Virus record (IMG/VR): IMGVR_UViG_2724679542_000011
Length of the DNA stretch: 8,638 nucleotides
From: a virus
Taxonomy: Duplodnaviria > Heunggongvirae > Uroviricota > Caudoviricetes
Reading direction: 5' to 3' (one strand)
A program made the position numbers and the translations under genes. Of this stretch, positions 1-8,638 are shown in pieces. How positions within the stretch are numbered: position 1 is the first letter of the stretch; the number at the start of each line of letters is the position of its first letter. The notes under the pieces are model-generated. The model was not told the DNA's origin. It searched no databases and saw only the letters and a program-made list of their open reading frames with translations.

Positions 1-11
1 ACCATCATACA

Positions 12-452
12 CTAAATCAGTAAGTTGGCAGCATTACCAGAAATTTCATGTTTTAACTCATCATTATCTATAATATTTTTATGTGCATTCTCAATATATT
101 TAGATATTGACAACTTCAAAGGAGACTGTTCGTTAATGAAAGTTTTCTCCTGTTCTTTTTCACTTAATGCTAATTGTCCTTCTTCAGTATCCCACCATTT
201 CTCAGCATATGCAGACACCAATAATTGTGCATATTCGGGTAAGTCACCATTAGATTTTGTTTTTAATTTTATATGATTTTCCCCAATTGCCTCAGCAAAA
301 TGCTTCAAAAGGTCTTGCCAACATGGCACACCAAGATAACGACGAGACACACCGGAGCCGACAAATAACACTGGGGATGCTTCGAACTGCTTAAAATGCT
401 CTTCGAGTTTTTTCTTAAAATTCATACGGATACTATCTTTAAAAGAAATCAA
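12..452 (-). CDS. SIR2-like (ThsA-type) NAD-binding domain protein, N-terminal 146 codons only; gene continues past the window's left edge. Start is either TTG at 450-452 or ATG at 423-425.
   Basis: Seen: translation contains PVLFVGSGVSRRYLGVPCWQDLL...AEAIG, fitting the hF-x-G-x-G-x-S-(x3)-G-x-P-x-W-x-x-LL pattern found at the N-terminus of SIR2_2-type defence proteins (compare ThsA AIFAGAGLSMSVGYVSWAKLL..IAEEIG, recalled from memory). Open frame reaches the window edge with no stop. AT-rich and lysine-rich codon usage unlike the rest of the window. No clear Shine-Dalgarno for either start. Confidence 0.5.
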   Translation of the reverse strand: MISFKDSIRMNFKKKLEEHFKQFEASPVLFVGSGVSRRYLGVPCWQDLLKHFAEAIGENHIKLKTKSNGDLPEYAQLLVSAYAEKWWDTEEGQLALSEKEQEKTFINEQSPLKLSISKYIENAHKNIIDNDELKHEISGNAANLLI

Positions 453-526
453 GCCCCTTTATACTGATTACATTAAGATATTGCGGCTTACACCACCAGT
501 AAATTGGTCAATTTTACGTAAGAAAT

Positions 527-570
527 TTAATTATTTAGATTCAATTAATTATTAGATTAACTAATTGACT
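527..570. repeat. Tandem AT-rich direct repeats (TTAATTATTTAGATT / TTAATTATTAGATT / partial third) about 75-145 bp upstream of the cargo gene start
   Basis: Seen directly in sequence. Function (operator or promoter UP-like element) is inference. Confidence 0.4.
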
Positions 571-815
571 ATCACTCCTGATGTAGCCGAATTGCTGTAC
601 CTTTGTTACGATGTAGGGCTCAATCAAGGGTCCACTCCCCTTTTATAAGTAATCATGACTTTAAATTTAGGCTTAGGTGGAGCATTACTGCCGATTAGGT
701 TCAATAAAAAGGCTTACCTTAGTGAAAACTCGGCTATTTGGCACTGCTGACCAATTCCTCGTTTGAATAAGTCAGCAGCTTTCAATTTAGAGGCGAATGT
801 GCGCTTTTAGATAAC

Positions 816-2084
816 TCACTCGCCATTACCCCGATTGATCTTCGCATAGTCAAACGGCGTAATCCCCTTCTCCCGGTTCGCATCCAGAAAATCAGCCCAC
901 CACTGCAACATCAGCTTGCGCTCATCCAGATGTTCCGCTTTATGGATATACGCCGCCCTCACCGAATTGCGTTCCATATGGCTCATCTGCCTTTCCACCG
1001 CATCCTTCGACCATAACCCTGACTCAATCAATGAGCTACAGGCCATAGTGCGGAAGCCGTGGCCGCAAACCTCAACCTTGGTGTCATAGCCCATCACCCG
1101 CAATGCACTGTTCACCGTGTTTTCACTCATGGGCTTACTCGGATCGTGATCGCCAATAAAAATCAGCTCATGTTCGCCACAGAACTGTTTTATCTGCTTC
1201 AGGATCGCTAGCGCCTGCTTTGAAAGCGGCACCAGATGAGGTGTACGCATCTTTGCTCCTCGCTGAGAATGTTTCACACCGGGAATAGGTTCTCGCTCAG
1301 GCGGGATGGTCCACATTGACGTTTCAAAATCGATTTCTGACCAGCGAGCAAAACGCAGCTCACTGGATCGAATAAAAATAAGCAGGGTAAGTTCGGTTGC
1401 CCAGCGGGTTAGTAGCCTGCCGGTGTATTCATCGATTTTCTGGAGTAATTCCGGGATACGCTTTAACTCCAGCGCCGGACGATGCTGTCGATTACTGGAA
1501 GCTACCGCCCCCGCCATCTCTTGCGCCGGATTGTAATCAATTAACCCGCTTTGCACTGCATAACGCATGATGGCCGTGGTGCGCTGTTGAAGGCGGGAAG
1601 CCACTTCAAGACGTCCGGATTTCTCCACGGCTTTAATAGGAATTAACAGATCGCGGGTGCCCAGTTCAGCAATATTGTGGGAACCAATTGCCGGGAAGAT
1701 ATTGTCCTCCAGGCTCTTTTTTACACGATTAGCATGCTCTTCCGACCATTTTTGGTTGGTTACGAGCCACTCTCTGGCAACCTTCTCGAAAGTAATAATC
1801 TCTTTCGCCTGCTCTTCTTTCACAGCACGCTTATGCTCACGAGGATCGATACCAGCAGCTACCAGCTTTCTGGCCTCTTCCCTTTTCTTCCGCGCATCCG
1901 CCAGCGAAACATCCGGGTAAACGCCGAACGCCATCAAATGTTGTTTACCGCCAAAACGGAAACGAAATCGCCAATACTTTGAACCGCCAGGTTTTACAAG
2001 TAAGGACATGCCGTCGCCGTCAACAAGTGAATACTCTTTCTCCTCAGGTTTCGCAGAGCGAACTTTAGTATCCGTTAGGGCCAT
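816..2084 (-). CDS. int: P4-type tyrosine recombinase/integrase (422 aa from ATG at 2082-2084)
   Basis: Seen: N-terminal arm-binding-like region (KYWRFRFRFGGKQHLMAFGVYP), C-terminal catalytic motifs HGFRT and RAAYIH (His-x-x-Arg and catalytic Tyr). The ORF track begins at an upstream GTG (2162), but the conserved N-terminus MALTDTKVRSAKP starts at the ATG 26 codons in. Confidence 0.9.
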   Translation of the reverse strand: MALTDTKVRSAKPEEKEYSLVDGDGMSLLVKPGGSKYWRFRFRFGGKQHLMAFGVYPDVSLADARKKREEARKLVAAGIDPREHKRAVKEEQAKEIITFEKVAREWLVTNQKWSEEHANRVKKSLEDNIFPAIGSHNIAELGTRDLLIPIKAVEKSGRLEVASRLQQRTTAIMRYAVQSGLIDYNPAQEMAGAVASSNRQHRPALELKRIPELLQKIDEYTGRLLTRWATELTLLIFIRSSELRFARWSEIDFETSMWTIPPEREPIPGVKHSQRGAKMRTPHLVPLSKQALAILKQIKQFCGEHELIFIGDHDPSKPMSENTVNSALRVMGYDTKVEVCGHGFRTMACSSLIESGLWSKDAVERQMSHMERNSVRAAYIHKAEHLDERKLMLQWWADFLDANREKGITPFDYAKINRGNGE

Positions 2085-2247
2085 AATGGTCTTCCTTCCA
2101 TTGGTATCTCGTGAGTATACAAGCAATATCGAATCGGCAAATATACTCATTAGTATACTCACAAGCCTGTTGATGTGGGTTGAGTCAGGTTGACTTCAGT
2201 TGAGGGGAAAAGCTGGAAAAGCCTTGTGTAGCGCGGATTTCAGGCAT

Positions 2248-2270
2248 AAAAAAAGACCTCAGTTGAGGTC
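2248..2270 (-). terminator. Intrinsic terminator (minus strand): 6-bp stem GACCTC/GAGGTC, 4-nt loop, followed by a run of 7 U
   Basis: Seen: plus-strand AAAAAAAGACCTCAGTTGAGGTC; on the minus strand it reads hairpin then TTTTTTT. It lies about 14 nt downstream of the tRNA-like att core in the same orientation. Confidence 0.5.
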
Positions 2271-2282
2271 TATTTACATACT

Positions 2283-2306
2283 TTTGGTGCGAAGGCCGGA
2301 CTCAAA
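2283..2306 (-). other. attP core: about 20 nt identical or near-identical to the 3' end of a tRNA-Leu gene (T-arm 3' half, acceptor 3' strand, CCA)
   Basis: Seen: minus strand reads TTTGAGTCCGGCCTTCGCACCAAA. Established knowledge (from memory): the E. coli leuX 3' end is ...GGTTCGAGTCCGGCCTTCGGCACCA and P4 integrates there via a short core. No complete tRNA is present, since the upstream sequence is AT-rich and non-tRNA-like. Confidence 0.6.
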
Positions 2307-2449
2307 TATCAAAATAAGTTAATGATAAAAAACAAATAATAAAACACAACAATGAAATATGCCCCCTTTTGTGCCCCCACTGTTTTTCTGACCAATCTAT
2401 TTTCAGCCCATCAATAAATCGGAAAGTTAAATAATTTTTAATCAGTAAG

Positions 2450-2475
2450 TTTGGATCCGTAGCCCGGATCCAAAC
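2450..2475. repeat. Near-perfect 10-bp inverted repeat TTTGGATCCG ... CGGATCCAAA with a 5-nt spacer, between attP and crr
   Basis: Seen directly. Function unknown. Confidence 0.4.
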
Positions 2476-2519
2476 CAGTGCATCTTTTATCCACATAAAA
2501 AATTTTTTTTCGAAAGAAC

Positions 2520-2611
2520 TGTTCACACTGTTCACCTTTCATTTTTCTCTTTTAATTTCAGTGTGATAACGGGTGAATATACGGTGAAGGGTGAACAGTG
2601 GATTGTTCACC
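2520..2611. repeat. crr-like iteron cluster: at least 6 copies of the octamer TGTTCACC (or its complement GGTGAACA, some 6-7 of 8 matches) in both orientations
   Basis: Seen: TGTTCACA 2520-2527, TGTTCACC 2529-2536, GGTGAATA 2572-2579, GGTGAAGG 2583-2590, GGTGAACA 2590-2597, TGTTCACC 2604-2611. Established knowledge: P4 alpha binds type-I iterons TGTTCACC at ori and crr. Confidence 0.7.
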
Positions 2612-2629
2612 TTCGGGGGAGGTCGGGAT

Positions 2630-2654
2630 AAAAAAAGACCGGCAGATGCCGGTC
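2630..2654 (-). terminator. Intrinsic terminator of the alpha/left operon (minus strand): 7-bp stem GACCGGC/GCCGGTC, 4-nt loop, run of 7 U
   Basis: Seen: plus strand AAAAAAAGACCGGCAGATGCCGGTC beginning 8 nt after the alpha stop (2662-2664). Confidence 0.55.
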
Positions 2655-2661
2655 AGGTGGG

Positions 2662-4995
2662 TCAGGTTGTTGCAGGGTCGTCACATTTTGGCAGCCAGTC
2701 GCCGTAGCTTTCCTCTTTCAGTGTCAGGTTGGTCTGTATCCCCTGTTTGGTATGGCGCTTCTCGTAATTCAGTCCGTATTCCTTCAGCATCACCGGCAGC
2801 CCCAGCCCGAACATTTTCAGACTGAGTACATTCCGGTAGCCGTTTGCCTCCATGTAGGCCAGATAGGCGTGATAGAGGTATTTACGGTAATTACGCGGGA
2901 TGATACTGGCGTTCCCCATATACATGCCGCTGGTCTGCGGCAGGGTTTCCAGATAGCCGATAAAATCAAACGTCGGGTCGGCATCCCGTTTGATGTTCAG
3001 CGCCTCGTCTGAGTTCTGCTGGGACTGAAGCAGTGACCGGGCGAGCATCGGGTCGCTGAACTTCTGCATCAGGTGACGCACGATGACCGCCAGCTCGCGG
3101 GTGATTTTGTCCTTAAGCTGCGGGTCGCGCTCCTGCGGGGCTATCTGTTCCGGGAAGTGAATAATCACCCGCCGGCGTGACACGCCGCCGCTGCGGTCGG
3201 TGAAGCGCATCGGGTTATTGTTCACGGCCAGAATCACCGCCGGGATATGCGTGGAGTACGCATCCCGGTATTTCGGGTCCACGGACACCGCATCGCCGCC
3301 GGTGATGGCCTTGAGTCCGGCACCGTCGCCGCTCCATTTTTCCTGGTCCGGCAGGCGTATCAGTGAGAAGCCAGTTAACGCGGCACGTTCACGCGGGGAT
3401 TCCAGCGTCTCAATGGTGGCCGACGTGGCGTTATCCTCCCCGGCCAGCAGGGTGGCGATTTCGGCCATGATACTTTTGCCGCTGCCGCCGGGACCGGTCA
3501 CCTCCAGAAAGAGCTGCCAGTCGTAGCGGTTTGCCAGCACCATAAACAGTGCGGCCAGAATCACGTCGCGTTTTTCCGCACGGCCACCGGCGGCACGGTC
3601 AAGCCAGCGCCAGAACGCGGGGGCGTGGGTTTCCAGCGTTTCCCCTTCCACCGGTGGGGTGAAATCCACATCGCACAGGGTACGCATCCAGTGTGACGGA
3701 CTGTGCGGGTGGAACGTGCCGTTCTGTGTGTCGAGCACACCGTTACGAAAGCCAATCAGGCGGCGGGAGGGGGCTTCCTGCTGCGGAATAATCAGCTTCA
3801 GGGTGTCCACCACGGAGGCCACCTTCCCGGAGGAGAACGGCGCGCGCAGACGCTGAAACAGCCCGGCCACATCCCGGGCAAAGTCCAGTGGCGGCAGCAC
3901 CTTCCAGACACCATTTTCATAGCGGGACAGAAGCTGGCCGTTGGCATCGACCGCGAGCGCCTCGCCGTAATGCTCATAGATACGCATGGCCTTTTCGCTG
4001 GTACTCATGGCGGAAAACTCTGCTTCGCTCATGGTGTCGAACGGGCTTTCAGCCGGTGGCCGGATGGCATCGTAAATGGCCTTACGGGTGACCTCCCCGC
4101 CGTACTGCGTGAAGGCATCATTCCAGTCACCGAAGACCGGCGGCAGGGCAACAACACCTTCACACGCATCTGCGGCTGCGGCGGCTTTTTTCTGGCCGTC
4201 ACCGCTGAGGTCACGGTCTGCGGCAAGGACAATCTGACAGGCCGGATGCTTCTGCCGGGCAAGGCTGGCCAGAGAAAGGAGGTTCACGGAAGAAAGCGCC
4301 ACCATCACCGTTTCACCGGTCAGGTGATGTACGGTAAGTGCGGTCGCGTATCCCTCCGCTATCCACAGACGTTTTCCGGCCTGATTCTGTCCTTCAAGGG
4401 TGTGACAGGTGCCCCTGACCTGTCCGCCTTTCAGGGTGCGCTTACGGCCGTCAGCACTGATTAACTGAAGGTTAACCAGTTCGCCGCTGTCGTCATACAG
4501 TGGCACCACAAGGTCACCGGCGCGCCAGCTCACGCCACCGGCTCTGTGTGTGCCGGTCAGCATCCGGCATTCCCGGCCGGGAAAGCCCTTGCGGGTCAGG
4601 TAGGCGTTACCGGTTCCGGGACGGGTTTTTGCCATCAGGGTTTGTGCCAGTGCGGCGGCGTTCTTCCGGGCAGCGTCTGTTTCAGCAACGGCGGCGGCCG
4701 TCACTGCCGGGTCAGCCGGGGGCAGACTGCCGGTCACGGCAGCCACCTTTGCGGCCACGTCGGACGGGGAGACACCAAACACCTTTTCAACCAGTTTCAG
4801 GCCGTCACCGGCACCACACTGATTGCAGTACCAGGTGCCGCGCCCCTCCCTGTCATCAAAACGGAAGCGGTCACTCCCGCCACAGACCGGACAGGGCTGA
4901 TGATGGTTCTTCAGCACCTGAATCCCCAGCGCCGGGAGAATACGCGGCCAGTGGCCGAGCGCATGGCTGACGGTGGCGGTTACGTTCATTTTCAT
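2662..4995 (-). CDS. alpha: Alpha-type bifunctional primase-helicase (777 aa)
   Basis: Seen: N-terminal zinc-binding CPVCGG...YCNQCG, primase/Toprim-like acidic motifs (LAADRDLSGDG), Walker A GPGGSGKS of a D5/SF3-type helicase. AAGGAG Shine-Dalgarno 9 nt upstream of the ATG, overlapping the stop of the upstream gene. Confidence 0.9.
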   Translation of the reverse strand: MKMNVTATVSHALGHWPRILPALGIQVLKNHHQPCPVCGGSDRFRFDDREGRGTWYCNQCGAGDGLKLVEKVFGVSPSDVAAKVAAVTGSLPPADPAVTAAAVAETDAARKNAAALAQTLMAKTRPGTGNAYLTRKGFPGRECRMLTGTHRAGGVSWRAGDLVVPLYDDSGELVNLQLISADGRKRTLKGGQVRGTCHTLEGQNQAGKRLWIAEGYATALTVHHLTGETVMVALSSVNLLSLASLARQKHPACQIVLAADRDLSGDGQKKAAAAADACEGVVALPPVFGDWNDAFTQYGGEVTRKAIYDAIRPPAESPFDTMSEAEFSAMSTSEKAMRIYEHYGEALAVDANGQLLSRYENGVWKVLPPLDFARDVAGLFQRLRAPFSSGKVASVVDTLKLIIPQQEAPSRRLIGFRNGVLDTQNGTFHPHSPSHWMRTLCDVDFTPPVEGETLETHAPAFWRWLDRAAGGRAEKRDVILAALFMVLANRYDWQLFLEVTGPGGSGKSIMAEIATLLAGEDNATSATIETLESPRERAALTGFSLIRLPDQEKWSGDGAGLKAITGGDAVSVDPKYRDAYSTHIPAVILAVNNNPMRFTDRSGGVSRRRVIIHFPEQIAPQERDPQLKDKITRELAVIVRHLMQKFSDPMLARSLLQSQQNSDEALNIKRDADPTFDFIGYLETLPQTSGMYMGNASIIPRNYRKYLYHAYLAYMEANGYRNVLSLKMFGLGLPVMLKEYGLNYEKRHTKQGIQTNLTLKEESYGDWLPKCDDPATT

Positions 4996-5009
4996 GGTGT
5001 TGTTCTCCT

Positions 5010-5330
5010 TCAGTGCAGTACCGGCGCTTTTATGTGACGGGCACAGAGTTCATCCATCACAACCAGCCCGAGAAAGGACAGCGACGGTGCGGCCTTCAGG
5101 GGGCCGGATTCCATTAAATCTTCCAGCAGGGCACAGGCTATCTGACGCCCTTTTTCCTCACCGTGCTGGCGCAGATAAAAGCCTTCCAGCTCAGCGGCGA
5201 TGGCCGCCTCCAGTGACTCAAGGGTGAGATGCGGGTAGCGGTGCTGACGTTCGCACACGGTCAGCCAGGCACAGGCGACAGCACGACGGTAAAGGGCTGC
5301 GCGTAAGACGGGCGGTAAGGGTGTTTTCAT
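5010..5330 (-). CDS. Left-operon small protein, 106 aa (P4 orf106-like by size and position); function unknown
   Basis: Seen: ATG with GGAGG Shine-Dalgarno 7 nt upstream; stop overlaps the alpha Shine-Dalgarno (translational coupling). No family recognised from sequence. Confidence 0.7.
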
Positions 5331-5465
5331 TTGCTTTCCTCCCTGTGACAGATGACTGCATTCCGTGCCGGTTGCATTAACTGATAAGGCATATCTGCGT
5401 CTCCTGAAGACGTGCGTATCCCTGCGCGAATACGCACATTTAATTTTTCGGGTGTCGTTTTTTAA

Positions 5466-5921
5466 TTACAGATAATTGCGGTAACTGTTATCCGGGGTGA
5501 TTTCCGGGTCAGGCTCCGTGCGGGGAATTTCCCGCCATTCCCGCGCTACCGGTGCTGCCCGGCTGACCGGAACAGTGTCCTGCGGGTAAATATCCTGATA
5601 TTTCTCCCGCCATTTCTGTAATTCCGGGTCTCCGGCCATTTCTTTCAGTACCGCATGCCGGTTTACGGGGCTGCGTTTAAACAGGTCAGGACGGTCACAG
5701 GTAAATTCCCGCAGAAAACGCCCCAGCGGGATGTCTGTGGTGCGCCCGTCGGCGAGGATACGCACAAGGATACTGAATTTACGGCGGTACGGGTTCCAGA
5801 CAATGTCCGGGCAGCGGTACGGCATTTCCCACGGAATACCGTCTTCCAGAATGCCGACCACGGCCACATCGGGAAAACCGGCAGAACGGTAAATCTCACC
5901 GGGCTGGGGAAAATCAAACAT
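5466..5921 (-). CDS. Left-operon protein, 151 aa (P4 orf151-like by size and position); function unknown
   Basis: Seen: ATG at 5919-5921 with GGGGAGA Shine-Dalgarno 8 nt upstream; start overlaps the stop of the upstream 95-aa gene (ATGTTTGA). Confidence 0.7.
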   Translation of the reverse strand: MFDFPQPGEIYRSAGFPDVAVVGILEDGIPWEMPYRCPDIVWNPYRRKFSILVRILADGRTTDIPLGRFLREFTCDRPDLFKRSPVNRHAVLKEMAGDPELQKWREKYQDIYPQDTVPVSRAAPVAREWREIPRTEPDPEITPDNSYRNYL

Positions 5922-6201
5922 GCGTCCTGTCTCCCCGGTCTTTCTGCTGGGCGAGAAAATCGCGGCACAGGCCTTTGGCTTTCAGCTCATTCAGCACAAA
6001 ATCAATATCTTCATTCAGGTAGCTGAAAATATGCGGAATGTAGAGCTGATGCAGGCCGGAGAGTTCACGGTGAATCAAATCACCCCCAACAAACTGGGAT
6101 ACGGCGCTGGCGCGGTTGAGCTTATGGTAAGCCTCAATGCTGAGGTGTTCACGGGCGTCATGACGTGCTGAGACGGTCTGAGGGGCTTTTTTATTACGCA
6201 C
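5914..6201 (-). CDS. Left-operon small protein, 95 aa, GTG start (positionally equivalent to P4 epsilon; not verified by sequence)
   Basis: Seen: GTG at 6199-6201 preceded by GGAGG at a 6-nt spacing; the open frame extends upstream, but only this start has a ribosome-binding site. Overlaps the 65-aa gene by 8 nt. Confidence 0.55.
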
Positions 6202-6391
6202 GGGACACCTCCACCACCGGCAGACGGGCAGCAAGGGAGAGCACATAGTCACGGACAAGGGAACGGCGGGCACTGCGTTCATCACCGGCCACGGTGCGAA
6301 GCATACAGATACGGGGATGACGGTCTGCGCGACGGACAGCCGCAAACACAAAGACAAATTCAGGGTGTGAGGGGGTAAGGGTTGTAGCCAT
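6194..6391 (-). CDS. Small protein, 65 aa ([21 protein letters not shown]...); first well-supported translated gene after the leader; Kil/Icd-like by size and position
   Basis: Seen: ATG at 6389-6391 with AGGAGG 8 nt upstream. Established knowledge (from memory): P4 kil encodes a 65-aa product and is the first translated gene of the left operon. Sequence identity to Kil not verified. Confidence 0.55.
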
Positions 6392-6789
6392 GATGGCAGC
6401 CTCCTGTGAATAGCAAATAACGCTATCGCCGGAGTTCTCACGCTCGATGGCGATAGCCCAGACGGGGGTGAGAATACCGGCTTCACAGGATACCGGCCAG
6501 CCCGGAGGCTGCCCCGCCTGAGCTACCATTGACTCTGCGGCATAATGAGCGGACGCGGGCAGGATGCACGGAATGCCATCTGCACGACTGACCACACACC
6601 ACACCATAATCTGGCGCTCTGTGGCATTGATTGCGACACAAAAAAAGACGCGTGGCGCGTCATATGTCGCCTGTGAATTGCTCGGGTTCTCACGCCCGGC
6701 TGCCGATTTTGCGGCAGCGGAAAAACTATATCCGCAAATGCCGGAAAAAGGCAAGCCAGAAAAAGGGAGTTTTTGCAGAGCGGGCATCA
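6392..6789 (-). promoter_or_regulatory. Left-operon leader between vis and the 65-aa gene: GC-rich hairpins, an intrinsic terminator, repeated GCGTGAGAAC segments and a complementary TTCTCACC segment; candidate immunity (cI-like RNA) control region
   Basis: Seen: the structures listed (detailed in findings). Inference: analogy to P4 RNA-based immunity with seqA/seqB/seqC pairing and premature termination. Confidence 0.4.
6640..6661 (-). terminator. Intrinsic terminator inside the leader (minus strand): 6-bp stem GACGCG/CGCGTC, 3-nt loop, run of 7 U
   Basis: Seen: plus strand ACAAAAAAAGACGCGTGGCGCGTC; on the minus strand hairpin then TTTTTTT. Confidence 0.5.
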
Positions 6790-7056
6790 TCATGCGTCGT
6801 ACCCCCGTTTGCGTCCGGCAATGCGTCCGGCCATCCATGCGGTGACTTCAGAGTGCAGCCAGGCCACATTTTTACCGCCAAGACTCACCTGCGGCGGAAA
6901 TTCCCCCTTACGGATGAGTTCATAGATGGTCGAGCGTGACAGGCCGCACAGGTGCATCACTTCCGGCAGACGTAAAAAACGCTCCTGCGTGATGTCCGGC
7001 AGCGGCATCAGTGGCGTCACAGGGGCGGGAGACGGGGAAGAAAAAACAGCTTGCAT
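6790..7056 (-). CDS. alpA: AlpA/Vis-family helix-turn-helix regulator (88 aa)
   Basis: Seen: HTH segment [29 protein letters not shown] resembles the AlpA/excisionase-like fold; GAGG Shine-Dalgarno 7 nt upstream of the ATG at 7054-7056. Size matches P4 vis (orf88) as I recall it. Confidence 0.8.
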
Positions 7057-7158
7057 CAGGCTACCTCGTTAATGTCCATACAGCACCGGATAAGTCCGTC
7101 CGGCTTCGGGTAGCGCTTTATTTTGTGAATATTTTTGGCAGATGCAACAGGGGGGATT

Positions 7159-7176
7159 TGTTCCGGCAGTCTTACA
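7159..7176. promoter_or_regulatory. TGT-N12-ACA box (candidate Ogr/Delta activator site) in the divergent region, plausibly for the leftward late promoter upstream of vis
   Basis: Seen: TGTTCCGGCAGTCTTACA. Established knowledge: P2/P4 late promoters carry TGT-N12-ACA centred near -55. Orientation and target promoter are inference. Confidence 0.4.
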
Positions 7177-7334
7177 ATGGCTGTGTATTTTTTATACATC
7201 AGCGCCAGATGGCTTTAAAACGCTCTGGAAGGAGCTGGAAAAAATTATAGTGAAATACAAATTGTTTTTTCTTATTTATTTCAGTGGATTAATAAAAATA
7301 AAAAGTAATAAACAGCACAAAAAGTCTATGAGCG

Positions 7335-7428
7335 GGTGAACAGACGGTGAACAGTCATTACTGCGATTGTTCACCCTTTAACTTACTGTATTACTTATCT
7401 TTTTTCTTATGGTGAACAGAGGTGAACA
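7335..7428. repeat. ori-like iteron cluster: 5 copies of GGTGAACA/TGTTCACC (4 direct, 1 inverted) next to an AT-rich tract (7250-7320)
   Basis: Seen: GGTGAACA at 7335-7342, 7346-7353, 7411-7418, 7421-7428 and TGTTCACC at 7368-7375; 10-11 bp spacing within pairs. Same octamer as the crr cluster about 4.8 kb away. Confidence 0.7.
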
Positions 7429-7507
7429 GTAAAATATAAAAAAACAAACAGTAAGCCGGTTTTTCCTGCGACCTTTTCCTGGCTTGCCGGTCTGAGGATG
7501 AGTCTCC

Positions 7508-7525
7508 TGTGTCAGGGCTGGCACA
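7508..7525 (+). promoter_or_regulatory. TGT-N12-ACA box upstream of sid (Psid-like Delta/Ogr-dependent late promoter)
   Basis: Seen: TGTGTCAGGGCTGGCACA centred about 80 nt upstream of the sid ATG, consistent with a -55 activator site and a short 5' UTR. Confidence 0.5.
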
Positions 7526-7597
7526 TCTGCAATGCGTCGTGTTGTTGTCCGGTGTACGTCACAATTTTCTTAACCTGAAGTGACGAGGAGCCGGAAA

Positions 7598-8332
7598 ATG
7601 TCTGACAACACCATCCCTGAATATCTGCAACCCGCACTGGCACAACTGGAAAAGGCCAGAGCCGCCCACCTTGAGAACGCCCGCCTGATGGATGAGACCG
7701 TCACGGCCATTGAACGGGCAGAGCAGGAAAAAAATGCGCTGGCGCAGGCCGACGGAAATGACGCTGACGACTGGCGCACGGCCTTTCGTGCAGCCGGTGG
7801 TGTCCTGAGCGACGAGCTGAAACAGCGCCACATTGAGCGCGTGGCACGCCGGGAGCTGGTACAGGAATATGACAATCTGGCCGTGGTGCTGAATTTTGAA
7901 CGTGAACGCCTGAAAGGGGCGTGTGACAGCACGGCCACCGCCTACCGGAAGGCACATCATCACCTGCTGAGTCTGTATGCAGAGCATGAGCTGGAACACG
8001 CCCTGAATGAAACCTGTGAGGCGCTTGTCCGGGCAATGCATCTGAGTATCCTGGTACAGGAAAATCCGCTCGCCAACACCACCGGCCATCAGGGCTACGT
8101 CGCACCGGAAAAGGCTGTCATGCAGCAGGTGAAATCATCGCTGGAACAGAAAATTAAACAGATGCAAATCAGCCTCACCGGCGAGCCGGTTCTCCGGCTG
8201 ACCGGACTGTCAGCGGCAACACTCCCGCACATGGATTATGAGGTGGCAGGCACACCGGCACAGCGCAAGGTGTGGCAGGACAAAATAGACCAGCAGGGAG
8301 CAGAGCTTAAGGCCAGAGGACTGCTGTCATGA
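7598..8332 (+). CDS. sid: Sid-type capsid size determination (external scaffold) protein (244 aa)
   Basis: Seen: ATG at 7598 with GAGGAG 7 nt upstream (the track's upstream GTG start is rejected); long predicted helical, alanine/glutamate-rich protein; stop overlaps the delta start (ATGA). Position and size match P4 Sid. Confidence 0.85.
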   Translation: MSDNTIPEYLQPALAQLEKARAAHLENARLMDETVTAIERAEQEKNALAQADGNDADDWRTAFRAAGGVLSDELKQRHIERVARRELVQEYDNLAVVLNFERERLKGACDSTATAYRKAHHHLLSLYAEHELEHALNETCEALVRAMHLSILVQENPLANTTGHQGYVAPEKAVMQQVKSSLEQKIKQMQISLTGEPVLRLTGLSAATLPHMDYEVAGTPAQRKVWQDKIDQQGAELKARGLLS

Positions 8333-8616
8333 TTTACTGCCCGTCGTGTGGACATGTTGCTCACACCCGTCGCGCACATTTCATGGACGATGGCACCAAG
8401 ATAATGATTGCACAGTGCCGGAATATTTATTGCTCTGCGACATTTGAAGCGAGTGAAAGCTTTTTCTCTGACTGTAAAGATTCAGGAATGGAATACATTT
8501 CAGGCAAACAGAGATACCGCGATTCACTGACGTCAGCCTCCGGCAGTATGAAACGCCCGAAAAGAATGCTTGTTACCGGATATTGTTGTCGGAGATGTGA
8601 GGTGTACTGGCAATAG
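8329..8616 (+). CDS. delta: Ogr/Delta-family zinc-finger late transcription activator (95 aa)
   Basis: Seen: N-terminal CPSCGHVAHTRRAH...CRNIYCSATF, the C-x2-C ... C-x4-C Ogr/Delta finger; start overlaps the sid stop. Confidence 0.8.
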   Translation: MIYCPSCGHVAHTRRAHFMDDGTKIMIAQCRNIYCSATFEASESFFSDCKDSGMEYISGKQRYRDSLTSASGSMKRPKRMLVTGYCCRRCEVYWQ

Positions 8617-8638
8617 CGGACACTACCATTTGTTCTTT

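Follow-up and report, generated by a model that had tools for sequence, protein, structure and literature searches.

A SIR2-family gene of the PDC-S25 type truncated by IS1 in a leuX island, next to a tandemly integrated P4-like satellite

The window, i.e. the whole 8,638-nucleotide stretch of DNA analysed here, contains a P4-like satellite represented by alpha, the C4 RNA, sid and delta in its right part. To the left of these genes lie an intact tyrosine integrase gene of the P4 type and an AT-rich region, which carries the 5' remnant of a SIR2-family gene and ends within an insertion sequence (Table 1). The compositional step at the stop codon of the integrase gene is real, with GC contents of 0.353 at positions 39–815, 0.507 in the integrase gene and 0.609 in alpha. 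This agrees with the original prediction, which had noted an abrupt GC drop at this point and had described the region as AT-rich cargo next to the integrase gene; the region is laterally acquired and lies 3' of a P4-type integrase. The ORF at 12–452 on the minus strand, which contains PVLFVGSGVSRRYLGVPCWQDLL, is the sole credible ORF of the AT-rich part. Apart from it, only two ORFs of at least 40 aa are present in positions 39–815, both antisense to the SIR2 ORF, and the earlier view that this part holds a single gene thus stands. No match to any Rfam family was obtained in positions 39–815, and neither an ORF nor an RNA family was detected between the SIR2 start and the integrase stop. This intergenic region presumably includes the SIR2 promoter; one weak promoter-like site was found at 575–548 on the minus strand, the number of such sites being no higher than expected by chance.

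Table 1. Features identified in the left part of the window
Feature	Position	Strand	Remarks
Outer 38 bp of IS1 (insA-proximal inverted repeat)	1..38	-	Matches the final 38 bp of IS1A from strain MG1655 at 37 of 38 bases
TAG stop codon ending the truncated ORF, within the IS1 end	12..14	-	Last eight codons (GNAANLLI) and the stop are IS1 sequence
5' remnant of SIR2-family gene, PADLOC candidate family PDC-S25	39..425	-	Codons 1–129 of 529; assigned by DNA identity and PADLOC
AT-rich intergenic region, integrase stop to SIR2 start	426..815	-	GC 0.359; in E. coli relatives, conserved along with the gene
P4-type tyrosine integrase of the resident leuX island	816..2087	-	Intact; Pfam Arm-DNA-bind_3, Phage_int_M and Phage_integrase
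Hairpin resembling a terminator, immediately 3' of the leuX fragment	2254..2271	-	Identical sequence downstream of intact leuX in satellite-free loci
Last ~20 nt of leuX (tRNA-Leu CAA), with a 1-nt deletion; att core	2285..2303	-	End of the L006 alignment and start of the P4 match

The SIR2 ORF had been taken for the ~146 visible codons of a SIR2-like (ThsA-type) candidate gene extending past the left edge of the window. Its start codon is the ATG at position 425, which is the start annotated in relatives, and the visible coding sequence consists of 129 native codons, eight codons contributed by IS1 and a stop codon. The native part (39–425) shows 96–97% DNA identity to intact E. coli genes annotated as 'SIR2 family protein', and this identity ends at base 39. 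The fragment matched the PADLOC family PDC-S25 (PDLC04968) with an E-value of 1.2e-37 over profile positions 4–131 of 517, and ThsA1 with an E-value of 1.3e-4. The GxGxS NAD-binding motif is retained as FVGSGVS, and residues 18–27 (PVLFVGSGVS) align with the GxGxS region of KomC (ILFVGAGVS); G23, G25 and S27 are invariant among 56 homologues. Judged from these similarities, the N-terminus is a genuine SIR2-family match rather than a chance resemblance, as had been proposed from its motif.

The remnant therefore retains the N-terminal Rossmann strand followed by GxGxS that is seen in SIR2_2 NADases; the catalytic Asn (TTN[YW]D) and His (KxHG) of these enzymes are absent from it. In the intact protein, N143, D145 and H179, which are invariant in the 56 diverse homologues, are all encoded beyond codon 129, and the AF2 model places a single strand of the Rossmann sheet (residues 19–22) within residues 1–129. 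The ORF in the window matched no Pfam family and did not reach the gathering score of SIR2_2 (PF13289), because PF13289 models residues 138–260 of the intact protein. The proposed Pfam check thus failed for the fragment and succeeded for an intact relative, which scored 89.9 bits over these residues, and the PADLOC check identified PDC-S25 in both (E = 1.7e-164 for the intact protein, end to end). The full-length PDC-S25 architecture of ~520 aa, with a SIR2 domain and a C-terminal helical domain, is not found in the window copy. Having lost the Rossmann core along with the catalytic Asn, Asp and His, the product is unable to hydrolyse NAD+. The locus is thus a pseudogene, a dead copy of a catalogued candidate defence gene.

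The left boundary of the remnant coincides with the end of an IS1 element. Alignments to intact SIR2 alleles stop at base 39, BLAST matches in 28 E. coli genomes begin at base 39 or 40, and the 38 bp outside this boundary correspond to the IS1 terminal inverted repeat. When the 815-bp AT-rich segment including these 38 bp was used as the query, ~70,000 match places were found in E. coli, in contrast to the 28 genomes matching the remainder, as would be expected if the 38 bp represent the end of a high-copy IS. The gene does not continue past the edge of the window, as the original prediction had assumed, but is closed by an in-frame TAG within the IS1 end. A contig collection lists the truncated 137-aa product, with exactly this sequence, in 431 blocks, complete chromosomes included, and the sequence, which is named as a protein of Shigella, is seen on 351 contigs; therefore, the IS1/SIR2 junction is real and not an assembly artefact. 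Other entries in the 90% cluster of this protein bear the species labels S. flexneri, S. boydii and S. dysenteriae. The loci spanning the junction were recovered through an exact look-up of the truncated protein; a search for the exact junction in one genome-contig collection, which possibly holds one genome per species and no Shigella, gave no match.

In all eight IS1-spanning loci (L005–L012), a 768-bp IS1 containing the InsA and InsB ORFs follows nucleotide 387 of the SIR2 gene. This copy, which sits at ~10388–11155 in these loci, is 91% identical to IS1A. On the far side of the IS, the gene resumes at nucleotide 822 in L005, L009, L011 and L012 and at nucleotide 737 in L006, L007, L008 and L010, and the deleted codons are accordingly 130–274 or 130–245. 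Either deletion has removed the whole Pfam SIR2_2 match together with N143, D145 and H179, in every complete genome that carries the junction. No target-site duplication flanking IS1 was found in the junction genomes. Insertion accompanied by an adjacent deletion is classical IS1 behaviour, and an IS1-adjacent deletion has as its signature one junction that is fixed and a far one that varies. Compared with the classical cases, the fixed end (nucleotide 387), the variable far end and the lack of a duplication are the same, and nothing unusual is seen. The presence of two right junctions and a single left one fits serial IS1-adjacent deletions. The nucleotide 822 junction occurs in satellite-bearing genomes and the nucleotide 737 junction in satellite-free genomes.

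Since the window ends 38 bp into IS1, the far side of the element in the source genome was deduced from the two loci (L009 and L012) that are 99.86% identical to window positions 1–8598. The far side being invisible in the window itself, IS1 might have inserted there without any deletion, in which case the other 400 codons would lie beyond the IS and the gene could be restored by precise excision or recombination. The two right junctions also imply an earlier state with less or no deletion. However, a deletion is present in every IS1-spanning locus, the two closest ones resume at nucleotide 822, no duplication is present beside the IS, and the C-terminal remnant of the gene is annotated as a separate Shigella protein (90% cluster, n = 180). 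We therefore regard a simple insertion as improbable, and even a simple insertion would leave the gene interrupted.

The integrase adjacent to the remnant is only 57% identical to the satellite's own integrase and shows no DNA match to P4. Homology to the P4 reference begins at the annotated attP core, corresponding to window position 2285, and extends from there to the right into crr and alpha; the sequence left of this position has no match to the reference. Conversely, the alignment with the satellite-free locus L006 ends at this att core. No complete tRNA gene is present within the window. In satellite-free Shigella chromosomes (L006–L008 and L010), an intact leuX is directly followed by the same integrase gene and SIR2'::IS1. 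The att core in the window is thus an attR-type junction, with the P4-like satellite to its right and a leuX island to its left, the two elements being arranged in tandem at one tRNA gene. Because the P4 match starts at the att core and genomes lacking a satellite have the module too, the integrase in the window is not that of the satellite, and it is the resident leuX island that carries the SIR2 gene as cargo. The hairpin next to the leuX fragment is probably the native leuX terminator. A free or plasmid form of P4 with an intact attP between its own integrase gene and alpha was also considered, and was ruled out by the att junction, the presence of two integrases and the occurrence of the module in satellite-free genomes.

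Complete genomes show the arrangement on both sides of the window. In L016 and L017, read in the orientation of the window, hsdS, the SIR2 C-terminal remnant, IS1, SIR2' and the integrase gene (422 aa) are followed by alpha through sid, delta and psu, and beyond psu by a three-gene cargo, a second integrase gene (421 aa) and ahr. A scan covering L003, L006 and L007, and not L016 or L017, confirmed an intact tRNA-Leu gene between ahr and the neighbouring integrase gene both with the satellite (L003) and without it (L006 and L007). The leuX island continues into a type I restriction-modification operon (hsdS-hsdM-hsdR). In the satellite-free lineage, the SIR2 C-terminal remnant is frameshifted in L006 and hsdR is split in three of the four loci (L006, L008 and L010), indicating that the whole island is decaying. 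E. coli EC16 has the same tandem layout with other island cargo. Its island integrase is 96.7% identical to that of the window, and its integrase-proximal slot (L003, 3721–7788) holds other defence-type genes, namely an HNH/type IV-like 'phosphorothioated DNA-binding restriction endonuclease' gene, a PDC-S08 5'-nucleotidase-like gene and two hypothetical genes, with the same type I restriction-modification operon upstream. Thus the leuX island, too, has a variable slot, located between its integrase gene and hsdS.

On the satellite side, Rfam models for the C4 antisense RNA (74.9 bits), isrK (69.7 bits) and the c4 a1b1 target (49.5 bits) matched positions 6446–6731 on the minus strand. The C4 antisense RNA is the P4 CI immunity RNA, and the immunity region of the satellite looks intact. 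At the right end of the window, the last 41 bases (8598–8638) are the terminus of an IS600-family (IS3-like) element, which interrupts the delta gene (Ogr/Delta) after codon 90 of 166, so that the ORF ends in ...CCRRCEVYWQ and a stop codon. Because delta is cut in this way, late-gene activation by the satellite in the source genome is probably defective. As both ends of the window consist of IS sequence, it has the appearance of a short-read contig delimited by two repeats.

The hotspot of P4-like satellites is the region between psu and the satellite integrase gene, next to cos (Rousset et al. 2022, PMC9122126), and SIR2-domain genes do occur in P4 hotspots (PMC9122126). According to the L016 and L017 maps, the true psu–int hotspot of this satellite lies beyond the right end of the window, on the opposite side of the satellite. 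In the closest complete genomes, it contains three genes encoding 359, 178 and 336 aa (L016, 12276–14853). The first two match PADLOC PDC-M18A (E = 6e-39) and PDC-M18B (E = 3e-15); for the third, PADLOC gave no match, and no Pfam domain is on record for any of the three. An uncharacterized satellite defence module is better sought in this hotspot than in the window. The SIR2 gene itself does not lie between psu and the satellite's own integrase gene next to cos, and the slot 3' of the integrase gene, which had been regarded as the accessory slot of the satellite, belongs to the leuX island. Features shared with a P4-like hotspot are cargo of the defence type next to an integrase of the P4 family at leuX, and the presence of a P4-like satellite in the window. 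The locus differs in that the att junction stands between the cargo and the satellite, that the cargo adjoins the divergent integrase described above, and that the actual hotspot of relatives holds genes other than SIR2.

These observations bear on the reading that the window shows an intact ThsA-type or other SIR2 gene in the accessory slot of the satellite, continuing past the left edge, possibly with partner genes. Such a gene would account for the genuine N-terminal SIR2 motif and for AT-rich cargo located 3' of a P4-type integrase that adjoins alpha, and would have precedents in the SIR2-domain genes known from P4 hotspots. However, the ORF is closed by a stop codon in the IS1 end where the homology breaks off, the att core separates the two elements and assigns the adjacent integrase to the island, the same module is found without any satellite, and the psu–int hotspot is located elsewhere and carries PDC-M18-like genes. 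In addition, the intact relatives have no SLOG domain, and a ThsB-like TIR gene is present in only one of the 28 E. coli genomes. We consider this reading very unlikely indeed. An equally slim chance is given to the possibility that the 137-aa remnant has been kept for a function as a decoy, a regulator or a dominant-negative partner of another SIR2 protein: the identical truncated ORF and its intact upstream region do persist in several Shigella species and on hundreds of contigs, but this is explained by shared descent in close, IS-rich lineages, and the fragment has a single Rossmann-sheet strand and no recognizable Pfam domain and stands among decaying neighbours (the split hsdR of L006, L008 and L010 and the frameshifted C-terminal remnant of L006).

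It is therefore very probable that the window represents the decayed integrase-proximal end of a leuX island in a Shigella-type genome, in which a PDC-S25 gene was cut by IS1 and partly deleted, and next to which a P4-like satellite has integrated in tandem. In the proposed course of events, the island would once have held a 529-aa PDC-S25 gene directly 3' of its own P4-type integrase gene, followed by hsdS-hsdM-hsdR. IS1 would have inserted after codon 129, and an IS1-adjacent deletion would then have taken codons 130–274 in the lineage nearest to the window or codons 130–245 in a sister lineage. What is left in the window is the presumed promoter region, 129 codons specifying the first beta-strand, GxGxS and several helices, eight IS1 codons and a stop. 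The P4-like satellite would have entered leuX in tandem at a later time, placing its alpha/crr end and a duplicated 3' fragment of leuX beside the island integrase gene. This tandem adjacency is the reason why the island cargo looked like satellite cargo.

The window feature is thus an ordinary pseudogene of an already known family, in an IS-riddled leuX region of Shigella: what appeared to be a strong defence-gene lead had also been assigned to the wrong mobile element. Two lessons may be drawn from this case. An IS terminus at the edge of a contig signals a truncated gene and not a gene that runs off the window, and where elements are integrated in tandem at one tRNA gene, an integrase gene located beside alpha identifies neither the satellite's own integrase nor its hotspot. 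The locus also adds one further case of IS-driven decay of defence genes in Shigella. Its remaining value lies in the intact PDC-S25 alleles of E. coli, which represent a single-gene SIR2 candidate with an uncharacterized C-terminal domain.

Intact alleles encode proteins of 529 aa that are named 'SIR2 family protein' in RefSeq (e.g. WP_096037622.1) and were found in 28 of 5,426 complete E. coli genomes, where the gene is located 3' of the leuX island integrase gene and adjoins the type I restriction-modification operon. The end-to-end match of the intact protein to PDC-S25 does not support the view that the window marks an undescribed module, because PDC-S25 is already catalogued in PADLOC as a single-gene candidate. 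The intact protein has no NCBIfam match. Its closest PDB relatives by sequence are KomC (E = 1.6e-11) and ThsA (E = 6e-8), and H179 aligns with H146 of KomC, the residue altered in the deposited H146N variant. An AlphaFold model of the intact protein has a pLDDT of 85.7, and only generic helical repeats were found for its C-terminal part. Homologues of ~520–530 aa with 35–79% identity are present in Vibrio, Aeromonas, Pseudomonas, Marinobacter, Tenacibaculum, Variovorax and others, and the family extends over the Gammaproteobacteria, Betaproteobacteria and Bacteroidota.

The neighbours of the gene are not conserved across genera; it stands alone on islands, beside toxin-antitoxin pairs or transposases, or inside a prophage. 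As no recurrent partner gene was detected in the neighbourhoods of E. coli and of distant homologues that were examined, the family is a single-gene module. In two Pseudomonas loci (L023 and L024, 7573–8148), a 191-aa ORF without a Pfam domain starts 4 nt after the PDC-S25 homologue and could be a lineage-specific partner; no counterpart is present beside the E. coli, Aeromonas, Marinobacter and Variovorax genes. In the literature searched, PDC-S25 is named once, in a list of predicted systems, and no experiment assigning NADase activity or phage protection to any PDC-S25 protein was found. Intact members have a fold of the SIR2 NADase type with invariant catalytic residues, and their genes reside on mobile elements and beside restriction-modification systems. 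By analogy with ThsA, KomC, DSR2 and Avs5, the intact proteins would be NAD+-depleting abortive-infection effectors. Each may act as a stand-alone effector, with an N-terminal SIR2 NADase of KomC/ThsA-like fold and a family-specific C-terminal alpha-helical domain that restrains the NADase or is coupled to it, so that sensing of a phage cue would lead to NAD+ depletion. On the basis of sequence, we tentatively suggest, as a possibility on which we would not yet rely, that intact PDC-S25 is a self-contained abortive-infection system of this kind whose C-terminal domain senses a trigger new for SIR2 effectors.

The system type had previously been left among Thoeris-like, SIR2-HerA, DSR-like and unclassified SIR2 fusions, and the intact relatives now allow a comparison with each known system. 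Thoeris ThsA carries a SLOG/STALD domain, whereas the intact PDC-S25 relatives have neither SLOG/STALD nor Macro-TM as a signal-binding domain, and ThsA matches stop at ~213 of 478 profile positions. No adjacent ThsB TIR gene was found in L001, in the Shigella loci or near distant homologues, and the label ThsA-type is therefore not appropriate. The island of E. coli EcPF16 does encode a 323-aa TIR protein that matches PADLOC ThsB1 end to end (E = 2.8e-179). Its gene is located 6.5 kb from SIR2, across hsdRMS, and is immediately followed by an HTH-WYL regulator gene (L002, 1–1251; L029, 14471–16020); no ThsA-type effector is adjacent, and homologues of the TIR protein are present in 58 complete E. 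coli genomes. This protein was rejected as a partner of SIR2, because it accompanies the full SIR2 gene in one of the 28 E. coli genomes and was not found near the distant homologues examined.

The SIR2-HerA (Nezha) operon requires an adjacent gene for the HerA ATPase, and the neighbours of SIR2 are the integrase gene and hsdS; yjgR, a gene with a HerA_C domain, is not part of the island, being located on the chromosomal side of leuX and ahr. DSR1 and DSR2 are proteins of >1000 aa with a large C-terminal sensor, in contrast to the 529 aa of the intact protein, which matched Dsr1 (E = 1.7e-12) only at profile positions 27–223 of 1227. None of the three named systems thus applies. KomC is the SIR2 NADase effector of Kongming and acts with KomA and KomB via a dITP signal (PMC13454610). 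KomC (PDB 8zsf and 9v0g) has 264 aa, whereas the PDC-S25 protein is twice as long and has its own C-terminal helical domain. In further contrast to Kongming, no recurrent partner was seen beside PDC-S25 in the neighbourhoods examined, homologues of KomA and KomB not having been searched for by name. PDC-S25 is thus not Thoeris, SIR2-HerA, Kongming or DSR. The window copy shares with PDC-S25 of PADLOC both a significant match to the family profile and the setting 3' of the leuX island integrase gene, next to the type I restriction-modification operon, and differs from it in having 129 of 529 codons, with the catalytic core deleted and the gene interrupted by IS1.
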